Below the pieces are notes generated by a model that saw only the letters and a program-made list of their open reading frames with translations, was not told where the DNA came from and did not search any database. A stretch of DNA of 30,455 nt from a virus. Its lineage: Duplodnaviria > Caudoviricetes. Below, one piece after another: positions 12,844 to 30,121 of the stretch (position 1 is its first letter; each line of letters starts with the position of its first letter). The position numbers were made by a program, and so were the translations under genes. Where the stretch lies: positions 1-30,455 of IMG/VR virus record IMGVR_UViG_3300025387_000054, one strand, 5' to 3'.

Positions 12844-15048
12844 CTAAATTGCGTCCTGAGCCACTTTTAACGCCTTGACGATTGCGTCATCAGGCTGATC
12901 TAAAAGAGGTTCCGTTGTCTTGTCAGTAACCTTTTTCGCTTGCTTAAACTTTCTCATCAGCTCATCTACTAATGGCTGAACATTATCAACCCTTCCGCCA
13001 GACTTGCGCTCAATGCGGCCGCCATTTGCTCTTGGAGCAGATTGCTGTGCTTGATCAGGAATTCCCATATCTTCCCAAGAATAAATTTTATCCTGACTTT
13101 CTTCTTTTGGGCTAGTTTGCTGAGTTTGATTTGACAGCTCACCTGATTGAATTTCTTCCCAAGAAACAGGAGCATTTTTTTCTTCTTCTCCAGTTATAGG
13201 AACTGTAGAAGCAATTGTCCTTGGAGATGGAGCAGCGGCTTTTAAAGCTTTAACAGCATTTTGAACAACAGGAGGAGAATCAGATAATGCTTGATTAAAT
13301 GTATTTCCTAAATTTTCTGCGACTTTCCCTATTGGACTTGCGGCATTTCCTAAAATTTCAGATCCTCTCTCGCCAATACCTTGTAGTTGGCCAAGACGAT
13401 AAGTTGCTCCTCCCACAATACGAGGAGAAGTTGTGGCCGCCACTGCCGCTGCTTTTGGCAAAAACGGCAATAAAGCAGGATTTAATATCATTGAAGCTGC
13501 ACCTGCGCCTTCAGCAATAGAAGCTAATGTACCTCCGGGTAAAGAGCTTAATGAATATCCAGCAATTTTATAAGGCAAATCTGGGTTAACTTGCTCTAAT
13601 TCATTCATTAAAGATTGTCCAGTTTGTCCTTTTAAAGATTTTAAAGCTTTATTTGTTGCTTTAATCGCTGAATTGCTGTTTGCTCCTGTTTCAGATCTAA
13701 TGGTTTTTGCCAAGTCCTGAGCATCTCCATATCCTTGCATAACGGTATTATAATTTGGATCAACTTCATTCATTGCGTCAATAACAGCTTTTCTTGTGTC
13801 GCCATAAGCTTTTTGTGAGAACCCAGAAGAAGCTCCTTGTCTTTCCCATAAATGCTGTTTTAAGACATCAGCTCCAATTATATTTGCATTTTTGTTTTGC
13901 AAGTCATTAATTGCAGACCTTATGTCTTGAATAGTTTGCAAATGATTGGTTGCAAAATTTTGAGGACCTTGATTTAATTCGTTTTCAATTTTATCTAAAG
14001 CTTCATGCGCCCCAGAAAAGTCTACTGGCTGATTAATTAAATTAGCTTTTCCTGCTAAATAATTTTGAGAAGCGTTTTCTCTAATTTTCTTGATGCCATC
14101 AATTAAATCTGAATGAATTTCAGATGCCTGCGTAATTTTATCTGCATTATTACCAGTTTGAAAATTTCTAAAAATTTCTGCCCTTTTTTGCAATTCAGGG
14201 TCTGAACTAAAAGACTCTTTTCCTGCTTTAAAAGCTTGTTTTATTACTGGCTCTCCAGAACCGGTTGTTTTCCCCAAAAGACCTGTTGCGCCCTCTCCTG
14301 AAATTCCTAAAGCATTTGGAACTTTTAGCAGATTATAGCCGGGGGTCATCCATTCACCAGTAGACCCAATAGCGTCTTTAGCTTTTTGTAGAGCCGTTTC
14401 TATTGAATCAAATGTTTTTGTTTTATTTGATGGAGCAACTGAAGAATCATCAAAAGTTGTCCAATTTTGACCATATTCATGAGGATTTGCTTGCAAATGC
14501 AATTTATAAGCTTCGTTTACATCATTGGCAATTGAAGCTCTTTTAGCTAATTTAACAGGAGTACTTAATCCTGCTAAAGCGCCTTCCGCTACTGGAGTAA
14601 AAACGGCAAGATCCCCCATGACCCTGAATGGATCTGTACGAAACATTTCTCCTATTTTATCTCCGTCCCATTCTCTTTCTTTTGTTTTGGGATTAATTGA
14701 TACATACGGATCAGTAAGAGCATCTCTTAATCTTGTATAACCAAGAATTGAATTTCTCGCTCTAACATCTGCATCATTAGGCTTTTCATTAGGGCGAGAT
14801 GGGTATATTTTCATTACATCAGATTCATCAACTGGATGCCCAGCCAGTGATGAAGCTAACTTATAATCTGGATAACCAAGAATTCCAAAAGCATCTTTTA
14901 CTGAACTTGGTTTTTGTAAAAGCGTATCAATGCCATCTACAAATCTTTTAGTATTTCCAACAAAAGATGGACCTAAATTAGCCAAAAGCTCCGTAACAGA
15001 AGCTGGCAAAGATTGTTTTAAGTTATAATATGACGGAAGATCAGCCAT
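12844..15048 (-). CDS. Probable internal virion/ejection protein (734 aa)
   Basis: Large helical protein between the ejection protein and tail fibre genes; Ala/Gly hydrophobic segment GAGAASMILNPALL...TSPRIVG; C-terminal RANGG/RKSGG motifs. Confidence 0.6.
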   Translation of the reverse strand: MADLPSYYNLKQSLPASVTELLANLGPSFVGNTKRFVDGIDTLLQKPSSVKDAFGILGYPDYKLASSLAGHPVDESDVMKIYPSRPNEKPNDADVRARNSILGYTRLRDALTDPYVSINPKTKEREWDGDKIGEMFRTDPFRVMGDLAVFTPVAEGALAGLSTPVKLAKRASIANDVNEAYKLHLQANPHEYGQNWTTFDDSSVAPSNKTKTFDSIETALQKAKDAIGSTGEWMTPGYNLLKVPNALGISGEGATGLLGKTTGSGEPVIKQAFKAGKESFSSDPELQKRAEIFRNFQTGNNADKITQASEIHSDLIDGIKKIRENASQNYLAGKANLINQPVDFSGAHEALDKIENELNQGPQNFATNHLQTIQDIRSAINDLQNKNANIIGADVLKQHLWERQGASSGFSQKAYGDTRKAVIDAMNEVDPNYNTVMQGYGDAQDLAKTIRSETGANSNSAIKATNKALKSLKGQTGQSLMNELEQVNPDLPYKIAGYSLSSLPGGTLASIAEGAGAASMILNPALLPFLPKAAAVAATTSPRIVGGATYRLGQLQGIGERGSEILGNAASPIGKVAENLGNTFNQALSDSPPVVQNAVKALKAAAPSPRTIASTVPITGEEEKNAPVSWEEIQSGELSNQTQQTSPKEESQDKIYSWEDMGIPDQAQQSAPRANGGRIERKSGGRVDNVQPLVDELMRKFKQAKKVTDKTTEPLLDQPDDAIVKALKVAQDAI

Positions 15049-15050
15049 GA

Positions 15051-18000
15051 TTATTGCCTCGTTTCAGGCCATTTCCTTTCTCTTGCCCCCCCTTTACCAT
15101 CATTGGCAGAAGGATTCCAAAATAAGGATTGGCCTTTGGGTGTATAAACAACGTCATTCAATTTTAATTCATTTTTTGGTTTATTCTGTTTTGGATGAAC
15201 AAATCTTTCAGCATCGCTCATTCCAGCAAAATAACGGAAATTAGGGTCAGAGAAAATTTTCTTCTCAATGGAAGGCAATTGATTTTCTTGTTCATTGTTC
15301 CAATCATTCATAAATTTAGAGACGTTTGAAACTTTATTTGAAACTTGATTCCAATCATCGTTTCTCATTTTAATTTGATCCAAAACAGCCCTAGCTTTTC
15401 CTATTAAATCATATCTAGCGCCGGGAGATAATTCTGGTCTAGCAACCGTAGCTAAAGCTTCTCCCAAAGTAGCGGCAGGCGCTCCTTTTCCTAATCCGCT
15501 TTGAGCGGCAGAATTCATTGCAAGAATTACGGCATTTTTATTTCCAGAATCAATTGCCTCTTGTAATGCAGTCCATGTTTGCGGAACAGCATTTGGGAAA
15601 ATGCTTCTTAAATTGCCAACTAAATTAGCTTTAAAATCAGACAAACGATTTGCATCATTTTCAGCATAAATATCAGCCAATGATCTTAAAGCCTGATCTA
15701 ATTTCGGGTACATGTTTTGATTAAACATAACCGATTGTTTATTTTGATCATTAATAGCTTGAGAAGCATTCTCACTTGCTGTTTGATTTTGAATTCTAAG
15801 AGATGTCAAATTAGCAGGGCCATTCCATAAAGATCCATCTTTTAAAGTTACAGGCCATTCTGATTTCATAATAGAAGATAATTTGTCTTGCAATTGTTGT
15901 CTTTGAGATTGCAGTCCAGAAGGGTCGCCTTTGTTATTTGTAACAGCAACAATTTGATTATTCAAATTGTTAATTTGTTTTTGTAATACAGATGGCTTAT
16001 TGCTGCTATCCGCTATATTGCTTTCGTCTAATGGCGGAATTGGCTGTTGAATTGAACCCAATCCATATTCACCACGTTTTGCTCTATCGACAGTCTTCAT
16101 TGATAATGCTTCTTGAGAAGGAGCAGCCGTAGCAGCAGTTAGCGGCGTAACAACGGCTGCTGCAGGTGCGACTGCTGCAGGAGCGGAAGTTGATGGTTTA
16201 GGCGATACAGAAGCAGTTGCAATAGGTCTTGTTTCTGGAGCCGCTGCAGAAATTCCTTGTTGAGGAGTCGTTTGAGCCGATGGCTGAGAAGCTTCAGAAG
16301 GAACTTGGCCAACTCCAGTTTTTTGATTAACTTTGTCAGGCTGATAAAATCCCTTCCTCATCATTGAATCAGCATAACTTGTTAAATCACTAATAATATT
16401 ATTAGTCGGAGGAGCCATTGGGCTGTTCATAAACATGCTCGATACTTTTCCGTTTACATCGCTTTCTATGTTTTTCAACATTTCTTTATATTCGCCCGGT
16501 CCCAATAGAGTATTGTCAAGCGTGTTTTGCCATTTGCCCACATTAGGTAGCCATTTGTAATATTTATCAACAATTCCTAGAGCAGCATTTGTACCAAAAT
16601 ATCCGCTACGCATTACCTCAGCTAAAGCACGAGTTTGCTCAATTGGCAACTTCATTCCTTGAATTGAAGCCAAATACCAATTAATTGGCAACTGCCCTTT
16701 TTGAACATCAACTCTTTGTTGTTCTAATCCTAATTGTTGCTGTTGTAATTTAAATTCACGCTGCTGTTGATAAGACTGTGCTCCAGCTCCAACTCCAGAA
16801 GCCAAAGCAACTCCTAAACTTCTTGTTGGAGCAGTACCCATAGCGGCCAATCCGCTTAAAAATGGCAACAACGTATCTGCATTTTTATACCAAGGAGTTG
16901 GTTTATCTGTCTTGTCGGCATCAGCTTTGACAGGTATAGCCGCTTTTCCTAAGCCTGCCGCAGCATTTGCTTGTGCAGGAGGAGGAGCGGCAGCAGCGAC
17001 AGCCCCAAGTCCTGTATTAGCTTTTACGTCTGCAGAAACCGAAGAATCATCATTTTGATTGTCATCGGTTCCGCCATCAGCTCTACGTCTACGGCCAGCA
17101 ACGCCACCAGAAGACATAGCCATAAAAATAGCCGCAATTTTAGCGATGCTCGCAGCTGTAGAAGCGGCATCAGACACATTTTGCAGACCTGTCCGTTGAG
17201 GCGCTAATCCAGGAGCTGTTTGCAGTTTATTTTCATTTTTATTTTCATCAGGAATGTCCAATGAAGTTTGGCCTTCTCCACTAGCATAAGGCAAGTCTGA
17301 AGCTCCGCCTGAAGCATATCCAGCTAATCCGCCACGAGCAAAATGAAGCGCAGACAATCGATGAGATCCATCCTCTTCAGGAATTCCAAAACGAGGACCA
17401 GTCTCATCAGACTCATAAGGTATTCCTCCACCTGCCAATCCAATTCTATGAGTTTTAATAAATCCACCTTCTTTTGCCTTCAAAAGGTCATTAGAACTAT
17501 CAAAGTCATCATAGCTATTTTTTGGTTCTATATTTGCAGAAGAAGAAGGAGAAGAAGTTTCCTGAGGGACTGTCTGACTTAAAGCGTCAGATGTTGATTT
17601 TGACTGATCTGGAGTTGCAAACATTTTTCTAACACTTTGTGCAGCGTTTTTAACAGCGTTTTGAACAGGCTGCTTAAATGTTTCGTAAGTTTTATTTAAT
17701 CCCGTAGCGGCGTCAGTAGCTTGTTTTATATTTTCCAAAGCAGTTCTGTTTTGATGCAATTCTGGAGCAGTTGCTATTTTAGAAACAGGAATATTAGCTC
17801 CGGGCACAACGCTTCCTGCACCTGGCATTCCACTCAAGCCTCTTCCAGATTGAGCATAAGGACCAAACATTTGCTGTTGAGCGGCTAATATTGCAGCAAA
17901 ATCTGTTGCATCAATTCCTGATGGAGATCCACCCAATGCATATCCTTCTCCGCCATGCTTTTCGGTGACATGTCCACCCATTGATTGAGGGACTATTCCG

Positions 18001-20027
18001 CCAGAATAGTAATGGCCTCGATCAGCTGCTTCTTCAGAAGCTTTGCCGTAATCAACGGTCTTGTACCCATGCGACTCGCCAACCGCTTCTGGGGCGCTCT
18101 TCTCAATCTCTTGCGCGATATAACCAACGTGGGTTTTGTTATCGCCCTTGTAATTAAAGCGATAGAGCTTCTTGCCTGAGAAGTCCTTGCCGATTTCCCG
18201 AATGTTTTCTTTCAGGCGTTTGTCTGAGAAGAATCCGCCCGGCTGCGTGGTAGTCGTAGTCGATCCTTGAGCCGTACCAAGACCCAAAGCCGCATTCGTA
18301 AGGAACTGCGAGGTCTGGAATGGGTAAGCCTGCTGCTGCAGGAACTGGTTGTAAAGAGCTTGGTTAAGAGCTTGTTGGGTCTGCTGCTCGGTCGTGCCAG
18401 CAGCCAATTGAGCTTGGCCGCCTTGAATGGCGGAATTTTGAGCGCCTTGACCAATGTTCGCTAAAGAAGCTGAGGTTCCAGAACCCATGCCATACAAGCC
18501 TTGGCCAATGCCCTGAAGTTGTTGAGCGGCTCCGATGCCTTGCGCGTACTGCTGTTGGCCAAGCGCAGCCTTCTGCTGAGCGGTAGTAGCGCCTTGGCCG
18601 TACAGTTGCTGAGCCAAAGCGGCTTGTGCTTGCGCCGAAGTAATATTTTGGCCAAAACCTTGCTGGCCCAAAGCAGCAACATTTTGACCCGTAGTCTGGC
18701 CTTGCCCAAACAGCTGCTGAGCCAGAGCGGCTTGCTGTTGAGCGGTAGTAGCGCCTTGGCCAAACAATTGCTGACCAGCGGCCAATTGCTGTTGAGCTAA
18801 AGTGTTGCCTTGTCCAAAAATCTGCTGTCCCAATTGCGCTTGAGCAGCTCCCAAGCCCAACGGCTGCGAGTAAACTTGCTGGCCTAAATTGGCAAGTTGC
18901 TGACCAGTTCCGGTCTGTTGAGCATACTGTTGCTGAGCTAATGAGCCCAGTTGCTGGCCTGCAGAAGCTTGAGCCGCTCGATTGGCTTGAGCAGCGCCAA
19001 GGCCAACGCCTTGCTGCTGTTGAGCGGCAGACAGAGCTTGGCTGTAGCCTTGATTGAGGAGATTGCTATAAATGTTCGCGTTCGCAATTTGTTGTTGCTG
19101 AGCCAAATTAGCCGCAGCGATGCCTGATCGGTCACCGCCAAAAGCTCCAGCTTGAATAGCGTTGCCCAACTGCCCACTCATGGCTTGTTGGTTTTGCTGG
19201 TTCAGTAAAGCTTGCTCAGATCCGACCACAGATGACATATAAGGGGTCATGTATTGATCGATGGCTGATTGATTCAAGGCCGTGGGATTAATGCTTTGAG
19301 CGCTTTGTTCGCCCAAAGCTTGAGCTTCTTGATTCAATGGGTTCGCAGCGCCAAGACCGGCAAAATACTGATTAGCGGCCAGTTGGTTAAATTGCTGAGG
19401 AGCAGTAGCGGCTTGCTGATAAGCGGCTGCAGCTTGTTGATTGTAGGGCGATGCGGCAGCTCCTGCCTGACCCAACGTGTTTAAACCCTGAGCCGTTAAA
19501 GCGGCTCCTGCTCCCTGAGCTCCGCCCAAGGTATTTAATGCTTGATAATTCAGCGGCTGGGCTGCTGCTTGGCTGCCCATATATTGATTATAAGCATCTT
19601 GATTGGCTGACTGAGCTTGATCGTATGCTCCGCTTAGTTGTCCTGCCGCCTGATACTGCAGAGGGTTTGCGTTATATTGGCCTTGCGCCAAGCTCCCCAA
19701 AGAGCTCGCCGCCAATGCATTTCCAACATTTTGAGCTGCGCCAACATTCCCTGTTGCCTGAGAGTAATACGGCATAGCCGCACCTTGAGCTCCCATTAGT
19801 TCGCCAGTAGCGGCTCCATAGTATGGCTGGGCAGCTCCTGCTGCTTGGTTTACATTAGCAATGCCAGCTTGTTGTGTTCCGGTAAGAGGGGCAACAAATT
19901 GACCACCATAAGCCTGAAAAGGTTGAGAGGCAGCATCCTTAGCCGTTCCATAAGCTTGATTATAATTAGCAAGTACTTCTGGTGGTACTTGTACCGCCTG
20001 GGTACTGGTTGTCGTTTTGCCGCCCAT
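15051..20027 (-). CDS. Large ejection/DNA-pilot-type protein (1658 aa) with an internal peptidase S74 autoproteolytic domain
   Basis: MGGKTTTSTQ start, Q/A/G-rich helical repeats, AGAFGGDR, SDKRLKENI...YRFNY...GYIAQEIE...P.AV...VDY at aa 601 to about 661; directly follows the GNAT gene. Confidence 0.8.
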   Translation of the reverse strand: MGGKTTTSTQAVQVPPEVLANYNQAYGTAKDAASQPFQAYGGQFVAPLTGTQQAGIANVNQAAGAAQPYYGAATGELMGAQGAAMPYYSQATGNVGAAQNVGNALAASSLGSLAQGQYNANPLQYQAAGQLSGAYDQAQSANQDAYNQYMGSQAAAQPLNYQALNTLGGAQGAGAALTAQGLNTLGQAGAAASPYNQQAAAAYQQAATAPQQFNQLAANQYFAGLGAANPLNQEAQALGEQSAQSINPTALNQSAIDQYMTPYMSSVVGSEQALLNQQNQQAMSGQLGNAIQAGAFGGDRSGIAAANLAQQQQIANANIYSNLLNQGYSQALSAAQQQQGVGLGAAQANRAAQASAGQQLGSLAQQQYAQQTGTGQQLANLGQQVYSQPLGLGAAQAQLGQQIFGQGNTLAQQQLAAGQQLFGQGATTAQQQAALAQQLFGQGQTTGQNVAALGQQGFGQNITSAQAQAALAQQLYGQGATTAQQKAALGQQQYAQGIGAAQQLQGIGQGLYGMGSGTSASLANIGQGAQNSAIQGGQAQLAAGTTEQQTQQALNQALYNQFLQQQAYPFQTSQFLTNAALGLGTAQGSTTTTTQPGGFFSDKRLKENIREIGKDFSGKKLYRFNYKGDNKTHVGYIAQEIEKSAPEAVGESHGYKTVDYGKASEEAADRGHYYSGGIVPQSMGGHVTEKHGGEGYALGGSPSGIDATDFAAILAAQQQMFGPYAQSGRGLSGMPGAGSVVPGANIPVSKIATAPELHQNRTALENIKQATDAATGLNKTYETFKQPVQNAVKNAAQSVRKMFATPDQSKSTSDALSQTVPQETSSPSSSANIEPKNSYDDFDSSNDLLKAKEGGFIKTHRIGLAGGGIPYESDETGPRFGIPEEDGSHRLSALHFARGGLAGYASGGASDLPYASGEGQTSLDIPDENKNENKLQTAPGLAPQRTGLQNVSDAASTAASIAKIAAIFMAMSSGGVAGRRRRADGGTDDNQNDDSSVSADVKANTGLGAVAAAAPPPAQANAAAGLGKAAIPVKADADKTDKPTPWYKNADTLLPFLSGLAAMGTAPTRSLGVALASGVGAGAQSYQQQREFKLQQQQLGLEQQRVDVQKGQLPINWYLASIQGMKLPIEQTRALAEVMRSGYFGTNAALGIVDKYYKWLPNVGKWQNTLDNTLLGPGEYKEMLKNIESDVNGKVSSMFMNSPMAPPTNNIISDLTSYADSMMRKGFYQPDKVNQKTGVGQVPSEASQPSAQTTPQQGISAAAPETRPIATASVSPKPSTSAPAAVAPAAAVVTPLTAATAAPSQEALSMKTVDRAKRGEYGLGSIQQPIPPLDESNIADSSNKPSVLQKQINNLNNQIVAVTNNKGDPSGLQSQRQQLQDKLSSIMKSEWPVTLKDGSLWNGPANLTSLRIQNQTASENASQAINDQNKQSVMFNQNMYPKLDQALRSLADIYAENDANRLSDFKANLVGNLRSIFPNAVPQTWTALQEAIDSGNKNAVILAMNSAAQSGLGKGAPAATLGEALATVARPELSPGARYDLIGKARAVLDQIKMRNDDWNQVSNKVSNVSKFMNDWNNEQENQLPSIEKKIFSDPNFRYFAGMSDAERFVHPKQNKPKNELKLNDVVYTPKGQSLFWNPSANDGKGGARERKWPETRQ
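18450..18935 (-). repeat. Array of nine 18-aa (54-nt) repeats, consensus about QQL[FY]GQG.T.AQQ.AAL[AG]
   Basis: aa 365-526 parse into exact 18-mers; one more degenerate unit on each side. Confidence 0.9.
19293..19832 (-). repeat. Array of ten degenerate 18-aa repeats, consensus about A.P[YL]..QA...L..AQ.A
   Basis: aa 66-245 parse into 18-mers beginning AQPYY, AMPYY, GNALA, ANPLQ, AQSAN, AQPLN, GAALT, ASPYN, PQQFN, ANPLN. Confidence 0.85.
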
Positions 20028-20030
20028 GTT

Positions 20031-20531
20031 TTAATGCTCCGTGCTATCCTGCCATCCGCCAGTTTTCGCGCCATAAAGGAAAAAAGCGCCGCTTGGCTTG
20101 CCGAATTGACGTTCATACATACGAACTTTCGCTTCAGTGCGGCTGTTAGATAGTACTCCAATGATCAATGGAATACCAAGTGTATCTGCAAGCTTTTTGC
20201 TAAATTCGCAAAGCTTTTTAGCCCGACCACCTTTGGCGCTTCTAAACTCTGGATGGATGAAAATGGCTTTTTCTTCCACCACCAAATTGTCCGAATACCA
20301 CATGTGACCAATTCGCAGCAATACCAAGCCTTCAATTTTGCCGTTGGGCTTGCCGATCAGTCCGCAGATTCCATGATCTTGATGTAATGCTGGCCATATT
20401 TCAGCGGCAAGCTTTGCTGGGTTTGGGTTCAAGAATCCGTTCTCTTCGCAGGCCAACATGGCTATTTGCATGATCTCATCCATATCGGATGGGACGGCCG
20501 TTCTAATCACTAATTCATCAGGCTTTTCCAT
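20031..20531 (-). CDS. GNAT-fold acetyltransferase-like protein
   Basis: IRTAVPSD start, IFIHPEFRSAKGGRAKKL (motif A-like), MYERQFG; sits between tail and ejection genes as in many podoviruses. Confidence 0.75.
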   Translation of the reverse strand: MEKPDELVIRTAVPSDMDEIMQIAMLACEENGFLNPNPAKLAAEIWPALHQDHGICGLIGKPNGKIEGLVLLRIGHMWYSDNLVVEEKAIFIHPEFRSAKGGRAKKLCEFSKKLADTLGIPLIIGVLSNSRTEAKVRMYERQFGKPSGAFFLYGAKTGGWQDSTEH

Positions 20532-20532
20532 A

Positions 20533-21303
20533 TTAATCCTTCTTAGGTCCGGGTAATTTCTTCAACGTCTTAACAGTCTCTGCTCTCTTTTGCTTAACAA
20601 ACTCATCTAATACTTTGTGACCAGTCTCTAAATCGCCATTCCCTACCATACGAACTTGGTCGGGATGTAGTACATATTCTCCACCAGCGGCAATAATAGG
20701 TACAGTGTTTTCTACTTCTCCGCCCGATGCCATGTGAGGCATTTCAGCGCCATAGGGTCCGCCAGATTGCCCATAAGGCATAGAACCGCCGCCGTAAGGC
20801 GTTCCGCCGAATACGCGCTTCATATGCTTGAAGCCAGCCATCGTGTTCCCTTCACCAAAAGCGGAAACAATGTCCGCAGGGATGACGTATGATCCAGACG
20901 GAACGTGCATAGGCAGATGATCGGTTCGGCCAGCAACGGTGCTGTGGATAGGGCCAACATGCACTTTTGTCGTTACGGACGGCTTGATCTTGGGCATATG
21001 AGGCGCTTTAGGCTTGTGCATATGCATGCTAAATCCGCCTTCGGCCTTAGCCGTGCGTGCAGCCAATTTAAAAGCTTGAGCCGTGGGAGCACCTTTGCTA
21101 TTAGGCTTACGCATATGCTCGCCAGAGCCATGAGCGATGCGTTCCTGCTTGGCGTGAATGTTGGCGTACAAACCGCCGCCAGCGGCCTTTTTGGCCACGT
21201 TAAGGGCGGCTGCTATGGCTTGGTCTTTTGGATGGCCAGAATTGATCATTTCAGCGATATTGCTGCTAATGGTTTTCTGAGAGTGTCCATGTTTAAGCGG
21301 CAT
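20533..21303 (-). CDS. Basic, His/Lys-rich modular protein (probable internal virion protein)
   Basis: Modules MPLKHGHSQKTISSNIAE..., GLYANIHAK...GSGEHMRKP.SKGAPT, GRTDHLP...GSYVIPADIVS.FG.G and VPIIAAGGEYVLHPDQV, separated by AxGG. Confidence 0.75.
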   Translation of the reverse strand: MPLKHGHSQKTISSNIAEMINSGHPKDQAIAAALNVAKKAAGGGLYANIHAKQERIAHGSGEHMRKPNSKGAPTAQAFKLAARTAKAEGGFSMHMHKPKAPHMPKIKPSVTTKVHVGPIHSTVAGRTDHLPMHVPSGSYVIPADIVSAFGEGNTMAGFKHMKRVFGGTPYGGGSMPYGQSGGPYGAEMPHMASGGEVENTVPIIAAGGEYVLHPDQVRMVGNGDLETGHKVLDEFVKQKRAETVKTLKKLPGPKKD

Positions 21304-21310
21304 ACATCAC

Positions 21311-21655
21311 CTATGAGAAACTGACGGTCACAACTTGGCTAGTGCCTGGCACTACCAATACACCATTATTAACGGGCAAATTCACGACATAAATACCGAC
21401 CGTGTTTGGAATGATATAAATCGGCATTGTTGTCATTGAAGTTGAATTTGAATCGTATACGGTTCCAGTAGTGCTTCCTGCAGTGGTTACACTAATAACG
21501 GCTATTCTTCCAGCGCTGGCCTTAACCAAAGTTGCAGACGTAATATGAGGGAAGCCCTGAGCTCCTTGAACATTCAAATAGTTCTGAGCAGCAGTGCTAA
21601 TAGATGTAACTACGTTTTTGGTAGCGGTTAATATGTCTGTTAATGAAACGCTCAT
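21311..21655 (-). CDS. Small beta-rich virion protein
   Basis: 114 aa, ATLVKASAGRI...GTVYDS...NGVLVVPGTSQVVTVSFS; coupled to the hub gene. Confidence 0.7.
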   Translation of the reverse strand: MSVSLTDILTATKNVVTSISTAAQNYLNVQGAQGFPHITSATLVKASAGRIAVISVTTAGSTTGTVYDSNSTSMTTMPIYIIPNTVGIYVVNLPVNNGVLVVPGTSQVVTVSFS

Positions 21656-23976
21656 TAGTATCTACCGTCCTGTTGTGTCCTATAGCGCATATTACCAATA
21701 CGCCAGAAGCTGCCAACGTCATTGCTGCCCATGTAAATGCTCACTAATCGACCCCTGAATCGAGGCGATACAAAGGTCGTGTTCTGGGTTAATGCGAAAG
21801 GGCCGTACTGAGTCTGGGTCTGACCAGCATAATCGCTGACATAAAAAGTCAAATTGATCGTGGCATTTTGGCTTCCGCCGTAATAACCCCACTTCATATC
21901 TGGCCAAACTTCGTCAACAAACATCTTATTGTCTGCTTCGTTAATCACAAAGTTGCCAGTCTGGAACCAAGAATTCATTGCCTGACCATCAGCATTAGTT
22001 GATGTTTCATGCTGATAAATGTACAGAGAGAAAGGGTCTGCACCAATTGGCGGACCTAACACCGATTGATCCACCCAAGCTGATCTTCCCAATGTTCCAA
22101 AATCCCATACTCCCAAACCGACATTGTATTTGGCGTAGGCATTTACTTCTCCGCCATCGCTGATCGTTGGGTAATACCAAGTAATTTCATTGAAACGGCT
22201 GTTCACTGCAACTCGAATCTTATCCAAATTGGTTTGATCCAAGTCTTGATATATAACGTCCCAAACTGGGCAGGTAACAACCTGTACGCCAGAGCTTGTT
22301 AACGAGAAAAACTGGCTTGGCCCCATCCAGTAGACAACGCCGTTAATCGAAGCGGCGGCCTTGCGGCTAATCAAACCGCAGCCAGTACCGATTTCGTTAA
22401 ACGAATAAACGTATGGCTGGCCAACGTATTGCATTGACCATAATCCCAAATCAGTCCACACCAAACCTTGTTGCGGACCTTGAATGCACCCTACAATCTT
22501 AGAACCTTTTGGTATTCGATAAGAACCGGCTTGGTTAGTAATCTGAGCAATCCATGTTCCATAATTGTTAACGTCACACCATCGAATTAACAAAGGATCT
22601 TTTACTCCGGTAAAAGTCGACCCCCAAGCAATAATTTGACGCTGAGGCATCGCTACAAATATTCCATCGTTAACTTGAGGAGCTTGTGGAATGATTGTAG
22701 AAGTTGGGTTTCCGCTTAATGGGTCCCACTGATAAATTGGTTGGAATGGCGTATTGTTAACCAAAATTGTACCCGGCGATGTAATTGCTGCCGTAGTGGT
22801 AGTCGCAAAAGAAACGCTAGTAGGCGTAGAGCTAGTAACCGTCCAGACCCCATTCCAAGAGTTTGGAGAAGCTCCAGAAACAGTAATGGTCTCGCCAACG
22901 TCAATCGTGATTGTAGCGCCAGTAAAATTAATGGTTCCGGTAGAGCCAGTTCCAGAAGCGGAAGCGGCAGTTAATATGATTGGAGACTGTATTGGGCAAC
23001 TAACTAAAACCTCTCCCCAGTTATCCAAGGTCCAGTTATTAGCTTCAATAGGAACGCCCGTTGATGGCGTTACGGCAGGACCCGTTCCGTATCCTCCTGA
23101 TCCATATCCGCCAATGCCATATCCAGAACCTGCTGGAACGGCTCCAATACCAAAGCTGTAAATGTATCTTGCTTTGCCGTTATTGATCGATCCAGAGGTT
23201 GTTGATGTGGCGTTTTGCTGAGCGTAAATAACAAAAGAATTGGCATTTATTACGTTTTCGACAATGTAGTTGCCAAATAAAGTCAATCCGCCAACTTGCG
23301 TAAGAATCAAAATAGGAAACGTGCTTCCAGCATTAAATCCATGATTGTTTAAGGTTACTGTTACTTGGTTTGATCCGCTAACAGTGGCTAAACTTGGAAC
23401 ATAAGCTGTGGTCGATGTATTCGGAACAGGTAAATTGTTTCCAAATTGATCAGTAGCAAAAATAGTGTATTGGTCTGGGCTTAAATATCCATTTGGATCG
23501 CATGAATATAATCCAAATAAAACAACACCGCCAATGCTAATGTGAACCGGAATGTAAACGGAGTCATAAGAAGTAATGTTTTCAATCGTGGTGTCTGTTA
23601 TTACAACTGCAGCGCTTCCGGCAGTTGTAGACAGCGCCAAAGAAACATTGTCAGTAGCTGACCTAGGCGTTATGTCTTTTGAAGACCCGTTACTGATTGA
23701 GGTCAATTGAGACTGATAGGTGTTTGGCAAGTCTTGAGTTCCACAAGCCAAATAAGACTGAGACTCAGTATCTTCCCATGCCCACAAAGCTCTTGGAATT
23801 GCGCTAATTGTGTTTGGATAAAACTTGGTCCATCCGCCAAGCTTCTGAACCAACCCAATTCCGTTTCGGTCATAAATAAAGCGAATGAGGTTGCAGTTTG
23901 AGATACCTGCCTCATTCAATGTTGGCGTTTCGTTTTGATCAACGCCTGGCTTTAATTTTAATGACGCATGCGGCAT
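21655..23976 (-). CDS. Tail hub/nozzle, P22 gp10-like packaged-DNA stabilisation protein with inserted beta domains
   Basis: LKPGV...QKLGGW, WTLDNWGE, DPLLIRWCD, NQAGS.R, CGLIS...VYWMG, EITWYYP, DEVWPD, RFRGR, WRIG..R...DGR; inserted VTVT..NHG modules. Confidence 0.8.
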   Translation of the reverse strand: MPHASLKLKPGVDQNETPTLNEAGISNCNLIRFIYDRNGIGLVQKLGGWTKFYPNTISAIPRALWAWEDTESQSYLACGTQDLPNTYQSQLTSISNGSSKDITPRSATDNVSLALSTTAGSAAVVITDTTIENITSYDSVYIPVHISIGGVVLFGLYSCDPNGYLSPDQYTIFATDQFGNNLPVPNTSTTAYVPSLATVSGSNQVTVTLNNHGFNAGSTFPILILTQVGGLTLFGNYIVENVINANSFVIYAQQNATSTTSGSINNGKARYIYSFGIGAVPAGSGYGIGGYGSGGYGTGPAVTPSTGVPIEANNWTLDNWGEVLVSCPIQSPIILTAASASGTGSTGTINFTGATITIDVGETITVSGASPNSWNGVWTVTSSTPTSVSFATTTTAAITSPGTILVNNTPFQPIYQWDPLSGNPTSTIIPQAPQVNDGIFVAMPQRQIIAWGSTFTGVKDPLLIRWCDVNNYGTWIAQITNQAGSYRIPKGSKIVGCIQGPQQGLVWTDLGLWSMQYVGQPYVYSFNEIGTGCGLISRKAAASINGVVYWMGPSQFFSLTSSGVQVVTCPVWDVIYQDLDQTNLDKIRVAVNSRFNEITWYYPTISDGGEVNAYAKYNVGLGVWDFGTLGRSAWVDQSVLGPPIGADPFSLYIYQHETSTNADGQAMNSWFQTGNFVINEADNKMFVDEVWPDMKWGYYGGSQNATINLTFYVSDYAGQTQTQYGPFALTQNTTFVSPRFRGRLVSIYMGSNDVGSFWRIGNMRYRTQQDGRY

Positions 23977-23982
23977 TTTATC

Positions 23983-24759
23983 TTACCTATTGGGGCTTGC
24001 TGCAACAGCAGGAGACATAGAAGACCATGCAGAAGCAGAGAACTTTTTACGAGCTTCTTCAACAGCAGCCGATGTTAATAACGTCTTATACTGAGCTTCA
24101 TAGCTTTGAGCCATAGCAGGATCATCACTCATGCGTCCAAAGTTACGCTGGAATGCGCTTAAGTAAATCATGCTGGCCATGATGAGAAGATCAGGCAAGT
24201 AAGTGCTAATGAATGTGGTATTGGTTCCAGCCTGACCTGCGTTTGCATATTGATACAAGGTAGGAAGCCTTGACGTTCCAGTCACCGTCACCGTGTAATT
24301 ATTGTCAGGATATGGCCCAAAAATAATGTTGGTGTAAGTATCTCCGCCAGTAGAAGCATCTCCGCCGTACATCGCAAAATAAATGGGCGGAGCAACCGTT
24401 GACGATATTCCGTAAACATTTTGAATGACTTCCTTACTTACAGGCATGATTGGATAGCTTGACCCATCATTTCCCGTAACCTCAATTGTCTGCAAAGTAA
24501 CGAAGTCATTTACAGAAATCTGCAATTGATTGTTGCCGTAAGCCAAAGTATAAGTCTTGGCATTGAGCGATGGCAGCAAGTCCAAATCGCGCTGAATACG
24601 CAATTCTGCGTAGTTCAGCATCTGTGGAATGATGTTATTAAAAGCGGTATCTACGCCAACAACAACGCCGCTAGAAGTCGTAGTGTTTACGACTGCCATC
24701 GTACCTATTTGAGTGACGTAACCGTTGTAGGTTAACGGCGTTGTGTTTGGCGTTGACAT
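23983..24759 (-). CDS. Head-tail adaptor (tail tubular protein A-like)
   Basis: AELRIQRDL, PIYFA, FGPYPDNNYTV, TFISTYLPDLLIMASM; directly upstream of the hub gene. Confidence 0.7.
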   Translation of the reverse strand: MSTPNTTPLTYNGYVTQIGTMAVVNTTTSSGVVVGVDTAFNNIIPQMLNYAELRIQRDLDLLPSLNAKTYTLAYGNNQLQISVNDFVTLQTIEVTGNDGSSYPIMPVSKEVIQNVYGISSTVAPPIYFAMYGGDASTGGDTYTNIIFGPYPDNNYTVTVTGTSRLPTLYQYANAGQAGTNTTFISTYLPDLLIMASMIYLSAFQRNFGRMSDDPAMAQSYEAQYKTLLTSAAVEEARKKFSASAWSSMSPAVAASPNR

Positions 24760-24974: not shown

Positions 24975-25526
24975 TTAATTCCAAGGCAACTTGCCAGTTA
25001 AGGTCTCTGACAAAACTACTACTCCACCAAAAAGCAATCCTGCAACCAAAACAATACCGATAAACAGATTCATTATCAAATCAAATCTTGCCTGAGCCTC
25101 GTCAGCCTCTCTCTGCATTCTGAGCTTCTCAGCCTTAACCTTCTCAGTCTGCTCTTTCTTGGCCTCAAGATAGGCCTCACGCTCATCTTGGCTCATCGCC
25201 CAAATCATCGCTTGTTCTTCCTCGTAAGCCTTCTTCTTGAGCAATACCTGTTTGGCCAGCTCATTAGAAGACGTTACGGCGGCATCGTGATCAGCAATAG
25301 CGGCGTTTGTGGCTCTTTTGGCGATTCGAGTAGTGGCCTTCTTGTTGTTCAAGTTGGCCTGAATAGCCTTTTTGTCAGCATTCTTTTCCTTGTATTGCTT
25401 GTACTCTTCCGCTGTCTGAGCAATGTCTTTGACTAGACCCTTACCTTCTTTCAATACCCCACGAGCGGCCTTGAGCGTTCCCTCAGCCTGATTAAGTGGG
25501 TTGGTAATATCGTCTAATCCAGCCAT
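24975..25526 (-). CDS. Coiled-coil protein with a C-terminal TM helix (lysis cassette)
   Basis: 183 aa K/E/A-rich helix, then LFIGIVLVAGLLFGGVVVL; TAATG-coupled to the endolysin. Confidence 0.75.
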   Translation of the reverse strand: MAGLDDITNPLNQAEGTLKAARGVLKEGKGLVKDIAQTAEEYKQYKEKNADKKAIQANLNNKKATTRIAKRATNAAIADHDAAVTSSNELAKQVLLKKKAYEEEQAMIWAMSQDEREAYLEAKKEQTEKVKAEKLRMQREADEAQARFDLIMNLFIGIVLVAGLLFGGVVVLSETLTGKLPWN

Positions 25527-25945
25527 TACTTGATCTCTTTGCCTGCTTGTAAGTCATGCAAGGATAAGCCGCCACTGTATTGGAAATGAGCCATTTCTTT
25601 AAACGATTTCCAATCTCCGGCCCATTCTAAACCAGCCGCTTTACCCAGTTCCGCAACCTTTTGCCAGACTGGATGAGAACAATCCCAATCAGGCTTCCCG
25701 TTAACCAAGGGAACAATATCAATAGCGCAGCGGTAATTATGAAAAGACTCACCAGCCTTTGCATTTGTAACGATTTTTCCCGGCGCAGTTCTTCCTTGGG
25801 CATACAACGCATTTTGCGACTCCATGTCTCGGTATGTCGATGTGACTAAAATATCGATACCGTGATTCTTGGCATCGGCCAAAAACTGATCTACCCGTGC
25901 CTTAACAACAGGCAATAAATCTTCTAAATTTCTTGAATTAATCAT
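25526..25945 (-). CDS. Endolysin, M15 family (L-Ala-D-Glu peptidase-like)
   Basis: TSTYRD..SQNALYAQGRT.PGKIVTNAKAGESFHNY..AID, WAGDW...E.AHFQ. Confidence 0.92.
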   Translation of the reverse strand: MINSRNLEDLLPVVKARVDQFLADAKNHGIDILVTSTYRDMESQNALYAQGRTAPGKIVTNAKAGESFHNYRCAIDIVPLVNGKPDWDCSHPVWQKVAELGKAAGLEWAGDWKSFKEMAHFQYSGGLSLHDLQAGKEIK

Positions 25946-27821: not shown

Positions 27822-28553
27822 TTACGGCCTAAAGTAGCTGGAAATTGTGGGAGAAATATATTGTTGAGCTGTTTCGATGTTTTGTTGCGCTGCGATACCG
27901 TAAGATTCGTCAGCCAAAGGTTTGAGCATTTCGAGCTTTTCAGGAGCCCAGATAAGGGCTAATCTCTCGGCCAATCCGAAAGCGAACGCTTCTAAGAAGT
28001 AGTAGGGGATTTCTATTTGCTGGCCATCGGTGAAATTTGAGTCCTGAATCTGCCTTACTCGATAGTAGACAAACTGATTGACCGATCCATCTGGAACCGG
28101 CCACAAGGTCACAGTCGGTGACAGCAACCGATCAAACCAATAGGTCGTAGGAAATCCTTGCTGCTGAGGATTGGGATAAGAAGCATATTCCGTTCTGCTG
28201 ATGGGCAGGATAAGGCGGTTGATAGCCGCCGTACCCTGATTTTGCGTGATGTACGCATCGAGCATCACAATCGTATTGGTTGGAACTTGATATGTAGAAC
28301 AGCCCTGAACGAGATTGATGCATTGCTGATCAACTGTCCATAGGTTAACGCCTTGACTGCTCCAACGGCCTAACATCATGTTTGCGGCCATACGCGCTGA
28401 CTGCATATGCTCTTGAACGAGAGCAGTCGGGCGAATCCCACACAGTTGGTAGGAATACAACGTGATTTCACCCAAGCTTGGAGCGAATGCATATGTGCCG
28501 CTGGTATTAGCGTTGGCAGGCAAGTTGTTGCTGTTCACATAAGTTGTAGCCAT
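27822..28553 (-). CDS. Second head-tail adaptor-like protein
   Basis: TSGTYAF, SARMAANM...W...GVNLWTV, ISRTEYASYPN...G.PT.YWFDR, LWPVPD, P..FLEA...GLA..LA. Confidence 0.7.
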   Translation of the reverse strand: MATTYVNSNNLPANANTSGTYAFAPSLGEITLYSYQLCGIRPTALVQEHMQSARMAANMMLGRWSSQGVNLWTVDQQCINLVQGCSTYQVPTNTIVMLDAYITQNQGTAAINRLILPISRTEYASYPNPQQQGFPTTYWFDRLLSPTVTLWPVPDGSVNQFVYYRVRQIQDSNFTDGQQIEIPYYFLEAFAFGLAERLALIWAPEKLEMLKPLADESYGIAAQQNIETAQQYISPTISSYFRP

Positions 28554-30121
28554 TACGCCGCCTCAGATGATTGGGAAATTGCTGCCAGATTCCTACGCAG
28601 GCGCATATCGTTAGGATCTAAATCGACAGCGTCCTGAGCATGTTTCTTTGCGAGATCATACATCTTTAAATTCCAAGATGCTATAGCCGCGAAGTCATGT
28701 GGCTTCGCTCCCCACACTTCTGGGTCAATGGTGTAAACCATTTCCTTGTTGGTAATCGAAAGGCAAGTTAAGGCAGCGCCATAGCACTCAGCCCAACGGC
28801 CAAGCGTATAGCAGACTCCAGCCAGTTCGCACCACGGCTCTCGCGTGTTGGGCGCTTCAGCGGTGGCTTTACGCAGCCAGTTAATGGCGAGGTCATAATT
28901 GCCTATCTGCACATAGCATCGAGCGATTGTACGCATGGCGTAGCAGCGCTCATTGATCCATGTGGCTCGCGGCAACGCCAAGTAGCGCTCAGCCTCTTTG
29001 ATCGCTTGTTCCCATTGGCCGTGGAAAGACAGCTCTCGCGCATAGTAAAAGGCGTTTCGAGGGCAGTGCGGATCTTCCTCAATGCTGACGCGCAGCAGGT
29101 CTAAATACTGGCCTCTGCTCTTTGTGGGATCTGGCATATGGACCACCAGAAGCTTATTGGTGACCTGCCATTTCTCCTCAATACGGTCAGGCACGGGATA
29201 TTCATGGCAGGGGTGATGCCAGCGGTATCCTTTGCGCGCATGGATCTTTTCGTAGAGGAAAACAATGCCGCATCCCCAGTCAAAGCCATAGCGCATTCGG
29301 GTTGTGCCCTCAATCCATGTTTCCTCAATTGCCTCTCGCCATCCCTCTTGCAAAACCTCATCTAGGTCTAAGCTCACGCAGACATCGACATCAGCAGGGA
29401 GCATATGGAGAGCGGCGTTTCGGGCATCGTCAAAGCGCCAAGGGTTGATGTAGATGTGCTTAACGGTAGCGCCGTTAGCCTCTAGGATTTCTACCGTTTT
29501 GTCGGTAGATCCTGTGTCGGCAACCATGATCAGATCAGCGTCTTTAGCCGCCTTGCAGAATCTTTCAGCAAATTTCTCTTCATTCTTGCTAATGGCATAT
29601 ACCGCGATTTTCAGCTTCTTCTTTTCATTTGAGAACATATAGACTCCAATTTCATTATCAATCTTTGAATAGATAGGATTGCCAAAATATTGCCTGACTT
29701 CCTTGTCAGACCAGTCATCTTTTATGTGTTTTTCGTAGGGGTTTCCCTCGTATTCGTCTTGTGGGTAATGGCCGATTGGGATACTGATAATGACGTTTTT
29801 AGCGCACTTTTTAAGCTTTTCTACAAGCTCAACCGCCTCTTTAGGGGTCATGTGCTCCAAGACATCGCCTGCAATGGATAAGTCGTATTGATCATCAGGA
29901 CTCCATGTTCTGGCATCCTCAACGATCAGTCTGTCGTATAAATCAGAAAGGCCGTATTGCTCAACATACGGCCTCCATACCTCTATCCCAGTCAGATGAG
30001 AATCAGGGAACATCTTTGCGTATGTTCCCGATCCGCAGCCTATATCGAGGATTTTATCGTGCTTAACGCCTAATACTAAATCCTTGATGAATGGCTTTCC
30101 AGATTCTGAACTGAAAGGCAT
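28553..30121 (-). CDS. Fusion of class I SAM methyltransferase, family 2 glycosyltransferase and TPR repeats
   Basis: ILDIGCGSG, GIE, GDVLEH (MTase, about 29625-30121); IAVYAISKNE, DTGSTD, FDDARN, SLDLDE, HE (GT2); FYYAREL...A...ERYL, A...P..REPW..LA (TPR). Confidence 0.9.
   Translation of the reverse strand: MPFSSESGKPFIKDLVLGVKHDKILDIGCGSGTYAKMFPDSHLTGIEVWRPYVEQYGLSDLYDRLIVEDARTWSPDDQYDLSIAGDVLEHMTPKEAVELVEKLKKCAKNVIISIPIGHYPQDEYEGNPYEKHIKDDWSDKEVRQYFGNPIYSKIDNEIGVYMFSNEKKKLKIAVYAISKNEEKFAERFCKAAKDADLIMVADTGSTDKTVEILEANGATVKHIYINPWRFDDARNAALHMLPADVDVCVSLDLDEVLQEGWREAIEETWIEGTTRMRYGFDWGCGIVFLYEKIHARKGYRWHHPCHEYPVPDRIEEKWQVTNKLLVVHMPDPTKSRGQYLDLLRVSIEEDPHCPRNAFYYARELSFHGQWEQAIKEAERYLALPRATWINERCYAMRTIARCYVQIGNYDLAINWLRKATAEAPNTREPWCELAGVCYTLGRWAECYGAALTCLSITNKEMVYTIDPEVWGAKPHDFAAIASWNLKMYDLAKKHAQDAVDLDPNDMRLRRNLAAISQSSEAA

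Follow-up and report, generated by a model that had tools for sequence, protein, structure and literature searches.

Length-matched 18-residue repeat arms of a podophage ejection polyprotein and their probable fold as an antiparallel hairpin

Why should a phage protein carry two long arrays of 18-residue repeats that differ in consensus and agree in length? This question is raised by IMG/VR record IMGVR_UViG_3300025387_000054 (Duplodnaviria; Caudoviricetes), a linear virus record of 30,455 bases and about 53% completeness, which was analysed in its full length and is called the window here. It was detected in 24 runs from 23 metagenomic studies of freshwater and lakes. On its minus strand, the open reading frame (ORF) 15051..20027 encodes a podophage ejection polyprotein of 1658 amino acids (aa), and the repeats lie in its N-terminal domain (aa 1-600). 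A sequence-only reading of the locus had proposed that the arrays pair antiparallel around a hinge, change in step and build a DNA-ejection tube on the scale of the Gram-negative envelope. In this study, we show that the two arms keep matched lengths across 304 distinct homologues. We consider it highly probable that they fold back as one hairpin, and we discuss what such a hairpin may do.

Lag autocorrelation against 300 shuffles confirmed the period of both arms. Arm 1 (aa 66-245; 19293..19832, minus strand as all features below) comprises ten 18-residue repeats and gave z=7.5 at lag 18 and z=6.7 at lag 36. Arm 2 comprises about ten repeats (aa 347-534; 18426..18989), and aa 347-544 gave z=13.8 and z=9.8 at the same lags. 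The consensus differs, being a Pro/aromatic/Ala unit in arm 1 and QQxFGQGxxxAxQxAxLG in arm 2; Tandem Repeats Finder detected a 54-bp period in arm 2 only (18573-18827). The stretch between the arms (aa 246-346) had no lag above z=2 in the same autocorrelation. It is thus free of repeats, as first described, yet it is not a mere spacer, since AlphaFold2 (AF2) models and direct coupling analysis (DCA) place two more helices there around a turn at aa 293-299. The Gln-rich and almost uncharged character ascribed to the region was borne out, with Q 21%, A 21%, G 13.5% and 16 charged residues in aa 1-600 versus 215 in aa 601-1658. The repeat arrays are not an assembly artefact, because contigs assembled from other lake-metagenome runs span the arms in long stretches without gaps (18394-20060, 17900-19619, 18016-19596, 18676-20099).

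The Thr strands and the S74 site lie where they had been seen before. The domain begins with Gly-Gly-Lys and a Thr-rich strand (aa 2-14; 19986..20024; AF2 strand at aa 6-10), followed by a conserved N-side clamp (aa 15-65; 19833..19985), which covaries with aa 533-583. Arm 1 leads into a fixed-length helix-turn-helix core (aa 246-346; 18990..19292), the anchors of which are spaced by 29/40 residues in 227 of 228 homologues. Within the core, the GAFGGDR turn (aa 293-300; 19128..19151) forms the hairpin tip, and its residues F296, G297, G298, D299 and R300 are invariant in the homologue alignment. Arm 2 is followed by a conserved C-side clamp (aa 535-588; 18264..18425), recognised by conservation and DCA, and by the C-terminal Thr strand with a PGGFF end (aa 589-600; 18228..18263; AF2 strand at aa 591-595), the predicted free end after cleavage. 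PGGFF is the most frequent end before the S74 serine (90 proteins). The Peptidase S74 autocleavage domain (aa 601-about 665; 18033..18227; PF13884 at aa 601-649, E 7e-11) opens at Ser601 with Ser-Asp-x-Arg-x-Lys.

Homologues were gathered by hinge similarity from 80 of 174 and 80 of 538 viral loci, 13 loci of metagenome-assembled genomes (MAG), and the top-ranking 120 of 1306 proteins and 150 of 6817 representatives. Since they were collected by the hinge and the best matches were taken, the sample leans to close relatives. From 397 items examined, 35 lacked an anchor, many of them at contig ends, 58 were identical to another and 304 were kept. Arm 1, measured from the clamp to YMxPY, spans 26-565 residues and arm 2 spans 23-495 residues, with r=0.998; the prediction that the arms change in step thus held in this sample. 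The offset between the arms is exactly +2 in 231 of the 304 homologues and within 7 of this value in 302, as compared to 15% matched proteins (at most 22%) expected when arms are shuffled between proteins. In 257 homologues the length of arm 2 departs from that of the base class by some multiple of 18, and most others carry an extra 7 or 11 residues. Arm 1 has 70 residues or fewer in 52% of homologues, with a long tail of longer forms.

On a tree built from the conserved blocks (FastTree, midpoint root), independent contrasts of the arm lengths gave r=0.996. Of the 95 sister pairs, 30 are unequal in length; in 29 of these the change is the same in the two arms to within 3 residues. The length of arm 2 changed at least 130 times on the tree and the offset 37 times. 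The nearest relatives (P0002 and P0003) have 72 residues fewer in each arm; a relative shortened to this extent is about 83% identical. Relatives with 95-100% identical conserved blocks still differ by 18-72 residues per arm. The offset of cultured members is within 3 residues of that of the window protein in four of five measurable cases (phiM5, RW, OH, MJing1), and that of CRP-901 gp33 lies 22 residues away; LUZ24 gp53 and DB2 gp18 were left out, as their anchors scored too low. The two arms measure 156/142 residues in phiM5 and 114/103 in RW. Two apparent mismatches, L158 (86/196) and P0060 (50/304), proved to be N-truncated on inspection and were excluded by a stricter anchor rule.

Nothing else measured at the locus follows the arms. 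Post-hairpin length is unrelated to arm length (rho 0.03, n=259), and the flanking gene families show no clear length trend, the weakest P value (0.04) belonging to a 114-aa gene spanning only 112-137 aa. A comparison of 27 shared families in 27 genomes (the window and 26 records, of which two were incomplete or covered in part) showed no family but the polyprotein to track arm length. The 13 MAG contigs, seven of them labelled Alphaproteobacteria, may be mis-binned and were not used for a host-length correlation.

Two lines of evidence give the direction of pairing. The indel was located in each arm for 37 disjoint pairs whose arms had changed in length alike. The junction ranges overlap at the mirror register i+j=595 in 30 of the 37 pairs, as compared to 11, 23 and 29 overlaps at register offsets 0, 6 and 18, 13 in the best parallel register and a mean of 17.7 (maximum 26) for random placement. 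Mean-field DCA of 225 sequences (effective number 117) over 295 columns showed that 41 of the 60 strongest pairs fall at i+j 580-610, with a background of 9%; a further 12 of the top 60 are artefacts of windows overlapping in short proteins. The pairs connect the two halves of the core (V268-L323, Y259-A334, A282-A309) as well as the two clamps (Q43-L554, N60-Q540, A32-S573, A25-A579). The AF2 model of a short homologue (L006) reached pLDDT 77. Both this model and that of the window protein consist of long helices that are interrupted at GAFGGD, and each has no more than two strands, one per end. The N- and C-terminal Thr strands are predicted to pair with each other. Because arm lengths match, sister pairs change equally, indels mirror each other and couplings fall on one antidiagonal, we hold with high confidence that the arms fold back as one antiparallel hairpin, as first proposed.

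Several observations weigh against this fold or against the ejection role discussed below. The DCA columns cover the clamp and the core but, in either arm, only the first 25-30 residues. The AF2 model of the window domain is modest (pLDDT 67, pTM 0.37), with mid-arms below 50. The repeat logos show two possible Gly/Ala faces, as needed for a barrel wall, although two opposed packing faces of Gly/Ala did not reach significance when tested (P=0.13 and 0.07). No solved structure was found at E<=0.001 by sequence search of the PDB or by Foldseek. Two homologues are mismatched, L028 (230/196; from G005, a complete genome) by 36 residues or two units and P0055 (565/495) by 72 residues or four units. 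Both contain near-identical recent repeat copies and are possible evolutionary intermediates or assembly errors. No profile match was obtained to P22 gp7, PF25688 or phrog_598 (hhalign against gp7 and seven relatives, hmmsearch, Pfam); in favour of a link, features in the ESM Atlas point aa 1-600 to a P22_gp7 cluster at 0.87, which is below 0.9 and a lead only. Moreover, the window domain is without the hydrophobic C-terminal anchor of gp7 and ends in the short PGGFF before S74. Spike-protein rows in the PDB sequence search were chance matches to the GGD motif and were discarded. The top Foldseek match of the short model was weak (E 0.19), a chemoreceptor signalling hairpin. In chemoreceptors, symmetric paired indels define length classes of the signalling hairpin in heptad steps. 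The likeness lies in paired indels about a hairpin tip; function is unrelated and the steps are heptads instead of 18 residues.

Concerning family membership, the window protein matches phrog_4287, 'DNA ejection protein', with E 2e-5. Short homologues match it end to end (E 4e-13 to 3e-8, profile positions 4-295), and reciprocal hhalign of the domain to cultured members gave 99%. These members are phiM5 gp27 (Sinorhizobium), OH p40 (Ochrobactrum), DB2 gp18, RW gp65 (Caulobacter) and MJing1; LUZ24 gp53, with Pa223 gp56, is a more distant and weaker match. The cultured members share the tip motif, the Thr ends and, in most, the position after a GNAT gene. The window domain differs from them in that S74, a linker and another large region are fused to it, and by arms of clear 18-mers that are up to ten times longer. 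The phrog_4287 match supports the proposed DNA-ejection role at the family level, and the record of phiM5 gp27 notes a particle protein. According to a preprint, Pa223 gp56 is found in virions by mass spectrometry, is invisible in the tail map and is proposed to be a T7-gp14-like outer-membrane channel (10.1101/2025.06.11.659172). Three proteins of the hairpin family, phiM5 gp27 (L174:6566-7972), OH p40 (L175:5692-6831) and DB2 gp18 (L176:5869-6774), are annotated as tailspike or tail fibre because of S74, and their match suggests that the 'tailspike' labels are wrong. The literature searched, mostly open-access and without supplements, held no paper describing a fold-back ruler or paired 18-step length variation for phrog_4287.

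The closest solved parallel is P22 gp7*. According to the in situ study, each gp7* chain doubles back as two helices joined by a Gly-rich tip, and twelve copies form a 24-helix extracellular channel; residues 90-126 dock in the gp10 hub and the C-terminus sits in the outer membrane, whereas the periplasm is crossed by gp20 (bioRxiv 10.64898/2026.09.03.749273). This arrangement, with gp7* outside the cell, speaks against the envelope placement of the sequence-only reading. Like gp7*, the window domain follows a gp14-position gene, is rich in Gln, Ala and Gly, and very probably forms two antiparallel helices that turn at a Gly-rich tip, as indicated by the length match, the indels, DCA and the AF2 models. 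Unlike it, gp7 is a protein of 229 aa (relatives about 210-230 aa) with a hydrophobic C-terminal anchor and without repeats or S74. LUZ24 gp53 has a leader before Lys-Gly-Gly, as in gp7. The phrog_4287 profile run over the P22 record gave no match. Since no profile test matches P22 gp7, the window domain is not filed as gp7, and it likely works like gp7.

T7 gp14, Ar-KM gp41 and DEV gp73 are likewise helical first ejection proteins that extend the nozzle. A second preprint describes Ar-KM gp41, a phiKMV-like protein, as a helical hairpin in the nozzle after ejection (10.64898/2026.05.18.726046). These proteins are near-constant in size, with variation under 30% (181-240 aa) among 14 gp14-like proteins in a review (PMC8954989), whereas the hairpin family varies about five-fold. 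The comparison with phiX174 H made by the sequence-only reading is apt for a Gln-rich straight helical tube for DNA, and otherwise is a looser analogy. H consists of unbranched, non-folded-back helices with an 11-residue repeat; the window arms are 18-periodic and very probably fold back, and lag 11 stayed below z=2 in both arms in the autocorrelation against shuffles.

How might such a hairpin act? By analogy, we lean towards a model in which aa 1-600 are the phrog_4287 ejection domain and the hairpins would assemble into a DNA-conducting barrel bridging the tail hub to the host outer membrane. By S74 chemistry, aa 1-600 would be cut free by cleavage before Ser601. If P22 gp7* and phiKMV-like gp41 are a guide, the chain may be stored in the head and ejected first, the invariant-length core with the conserved GAFGGDR tip may dock in the nozzle as a putative fingertip, and the paired N- and C-ends may come to lie at the outer membrane. 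The placement of the ends is suggested by the S74-less LUZ24 gp53 and MJing1, which end in a gp7-like glycine zipper. Several hairpins would pack side by side to form the barrel, and the channel would be continued through the periplasm and the inner membrane by the remainder of the polyprotein together with the product of the gene that follows. Eighteen residues make five helix turns, so that one extra unit per arm would lengthen the wall by about 2.7 nm and leave the register unchanged. Computed at 0.15 nm per residue, the whole hairpin measures at most about 41 nm in the window protein, 17-20 nm in the most frequent length classes and about 14-69 nm across matched members, which departs from the earlier estimate of about 27 nm as an envelope dimension. 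Hairpin length would set the stand-off distance of the virion from the membrane. Selection on this length, if any, probably comes from the host surface, because nothing else measured in the virion scales with it.

The same barrel could instead cross the outer membrane and the periplasm and thus act as an envelope ruler. The commonest length classes, 17-25 nm, are near the width of the periplasm. An AlphaFold3 nonamer of about 330 A in the Pa223 preprint is also described as resembling a periplasmic tunnel, where the passage names gp56 and gp54 may be meant. A range of about 14-69 nm, and steps of 18-72 residues per arm between relatives with nearly identical blocks, argue against such a ruler. 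Moreover, the arms have no hydrophobic belt, a separate gp20-like candidate follows in the same polyprotein, and the stretch from hub to outer membrane is formed in P22 and T7 by the first ejection protein. We consider envelope crossing unlikely. Still less probable is a trimer, be it stalk, needle or tail spike, for which S74 would be the folding chaperone. S74 domains normally serve trimers, and the annotations of phiM5 gp27, OH p40 and DB2 gp18 point the same way. However, the S74 motif, found in 262 of the 304 homologues, is missing in 42 and in LUZ24 gp53, RW gp65, MJing1 and CRP-901 gp33, the client is predicted by AF2 to be all-helical and not a beta-helix, and both the gene position and the near-absence of charge fit an internal protein. 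The presence of Pa223 gp56 in virions without visibility in the tail map likewise fits poorly with a stalk or spike.

A different objection accepts the barrel and takes its length to be largely neutral above a minimum, with slippage adding units and selection restoring symmetry only. The at least 130 length changes on the tree, the lack of any other gene tracking the arms in the 27 genomes and the flanks, and the prevalence of short arms with a long tail all agree with this. Yet each step needs two matched events, and mismatched states are rare (2 of 304). The long form is also without arm indels in the listed contigs of eight lake or freshwater runs, a result tempered by the fact that contigs drop rare variants. 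Neutral length appears doubtful to us, and the hub-to-outer-membrane barrel remains the reading on which the neighbouring genes are considered below.

The minus strand carries a podophage morphogenesis block of adaptor, 773-aa protein, two small genes, GNAT, the 1658-aa ORF and genes of 734 and 1018 aa. The SU10-type adaptor gene (23983-24759), assigned by family match, is followed by the 773-aa virion structural protein (21655..23976; phrog_3287, E 4e-56), likely the tail nozzle or hub. The length of this protein is independent of arm length in flanking loci and the 27 genomes, and it is the putative docking partner of the hairpin. Directly upstream of the polyprotein lies a GNAT acetyltransferase gene (20031..20531; phrog_1249, E 6e-10) in the position of P22 gp14 and IVP-A. 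GNAT homologues are present in 110 flanking loci of polyprotein homologues, and the gene lies likewise upstream in P22, OH, CRP-901 and Tb. The P22 order is gp14-gp7-gp20-gp16. According to Hardies et al. (PMC10386132), IVP-A is homologous to P22 gene 14 and the ejectosome genes come after tube B. Met-Gly starts occur in 147 of 188 homologous proteins and M-G-x-x-x-S/T starts in 103 of 188. The latter resemble an N-acylation motif, and, speculatively, the upstream GNAT may modify the N-terminus of the ejection protein (20010-20531 for the gene and this start together).

Behind the S74 domain, a linker with seven A/S-x-G-G motifs (aa 666-1039; 16911..18032) leads to the C-terminal part (aa 1040-1658; 15054..16910), a candidate second ejection protein and gp20-like periplasmic tunnel. 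Its nearest named cluster in the ESM Atlas is PF16928 (P22 gp20) at 0.88, below 0.9 and a lead only, and no Pfam HMM match to PF16928 was found. Some homologous polyproteins have a muralytic domain between S74 and the C-terminal part. These domains vary (PF18013, PF05838; in P0016, P0013 and others) and are absent from the window polyprotein. All seven A/S-x-G-G motifs lie in aa 660-1060 and none beyond aa 1060; in 182 homologues they are about two-fold enriched versus shuffles, mostly after Phe or Tyr, and similar motifs are visible in a 256-aa gene (20533-21303). They are possible maturation-protease sites exposing Gly-Gly ends like the polyprotein's own start. The 734-aa gene that follows (12844..15048) is in gp16 position by gene order only, gave no significant match in family searches (Pfam, PHROG) and would be the third ejection protein. 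Elsewhere in the block, two SU10-adaptor (tube A-like) paralogues (27822-28553 and 23983-24759) recall the dual tube A arrangement of PMC10386132. A fusion of methyltransferase, family-2 glycosyltransferase and TPR (28553-30121), with related genes in 14 of 27 genomes, possibly modifies virion proteins. An M15-family peptidase among the structural genes (25526-25945) is likely the endolysin.

The first ejection protein as a helical hairpin is a known class; new is its about five-fold, strictly paired length variation in steps of 18 residues. We tentatively suggest, as a possibility short of an even chance, that a widespread clade of podophages from freshwater and soil adjusts how far its ejected DNA tube extends, between about 14 and about 70 nm in increments of 2.7 nm, through paired gains of repeats in a single gene. 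If so, tube length would act as a determinant of host range, fitted to the thickness of capsule, O-antigen or S-layer and independent of the tail fibres, and one protein would combine tape measure and tube wall in phages thought to be without a length ruler. Given the rule measured in 304, the tube length of phage proteins could be estimated from sequence in thousands of cases (6817 representatives at E<=0.001). With the two-arm rule, the question of what determines the tail-to-membrane distance becomes open to test, and the hairpin provides a natural template for straight helical channels whose length can be programmed.

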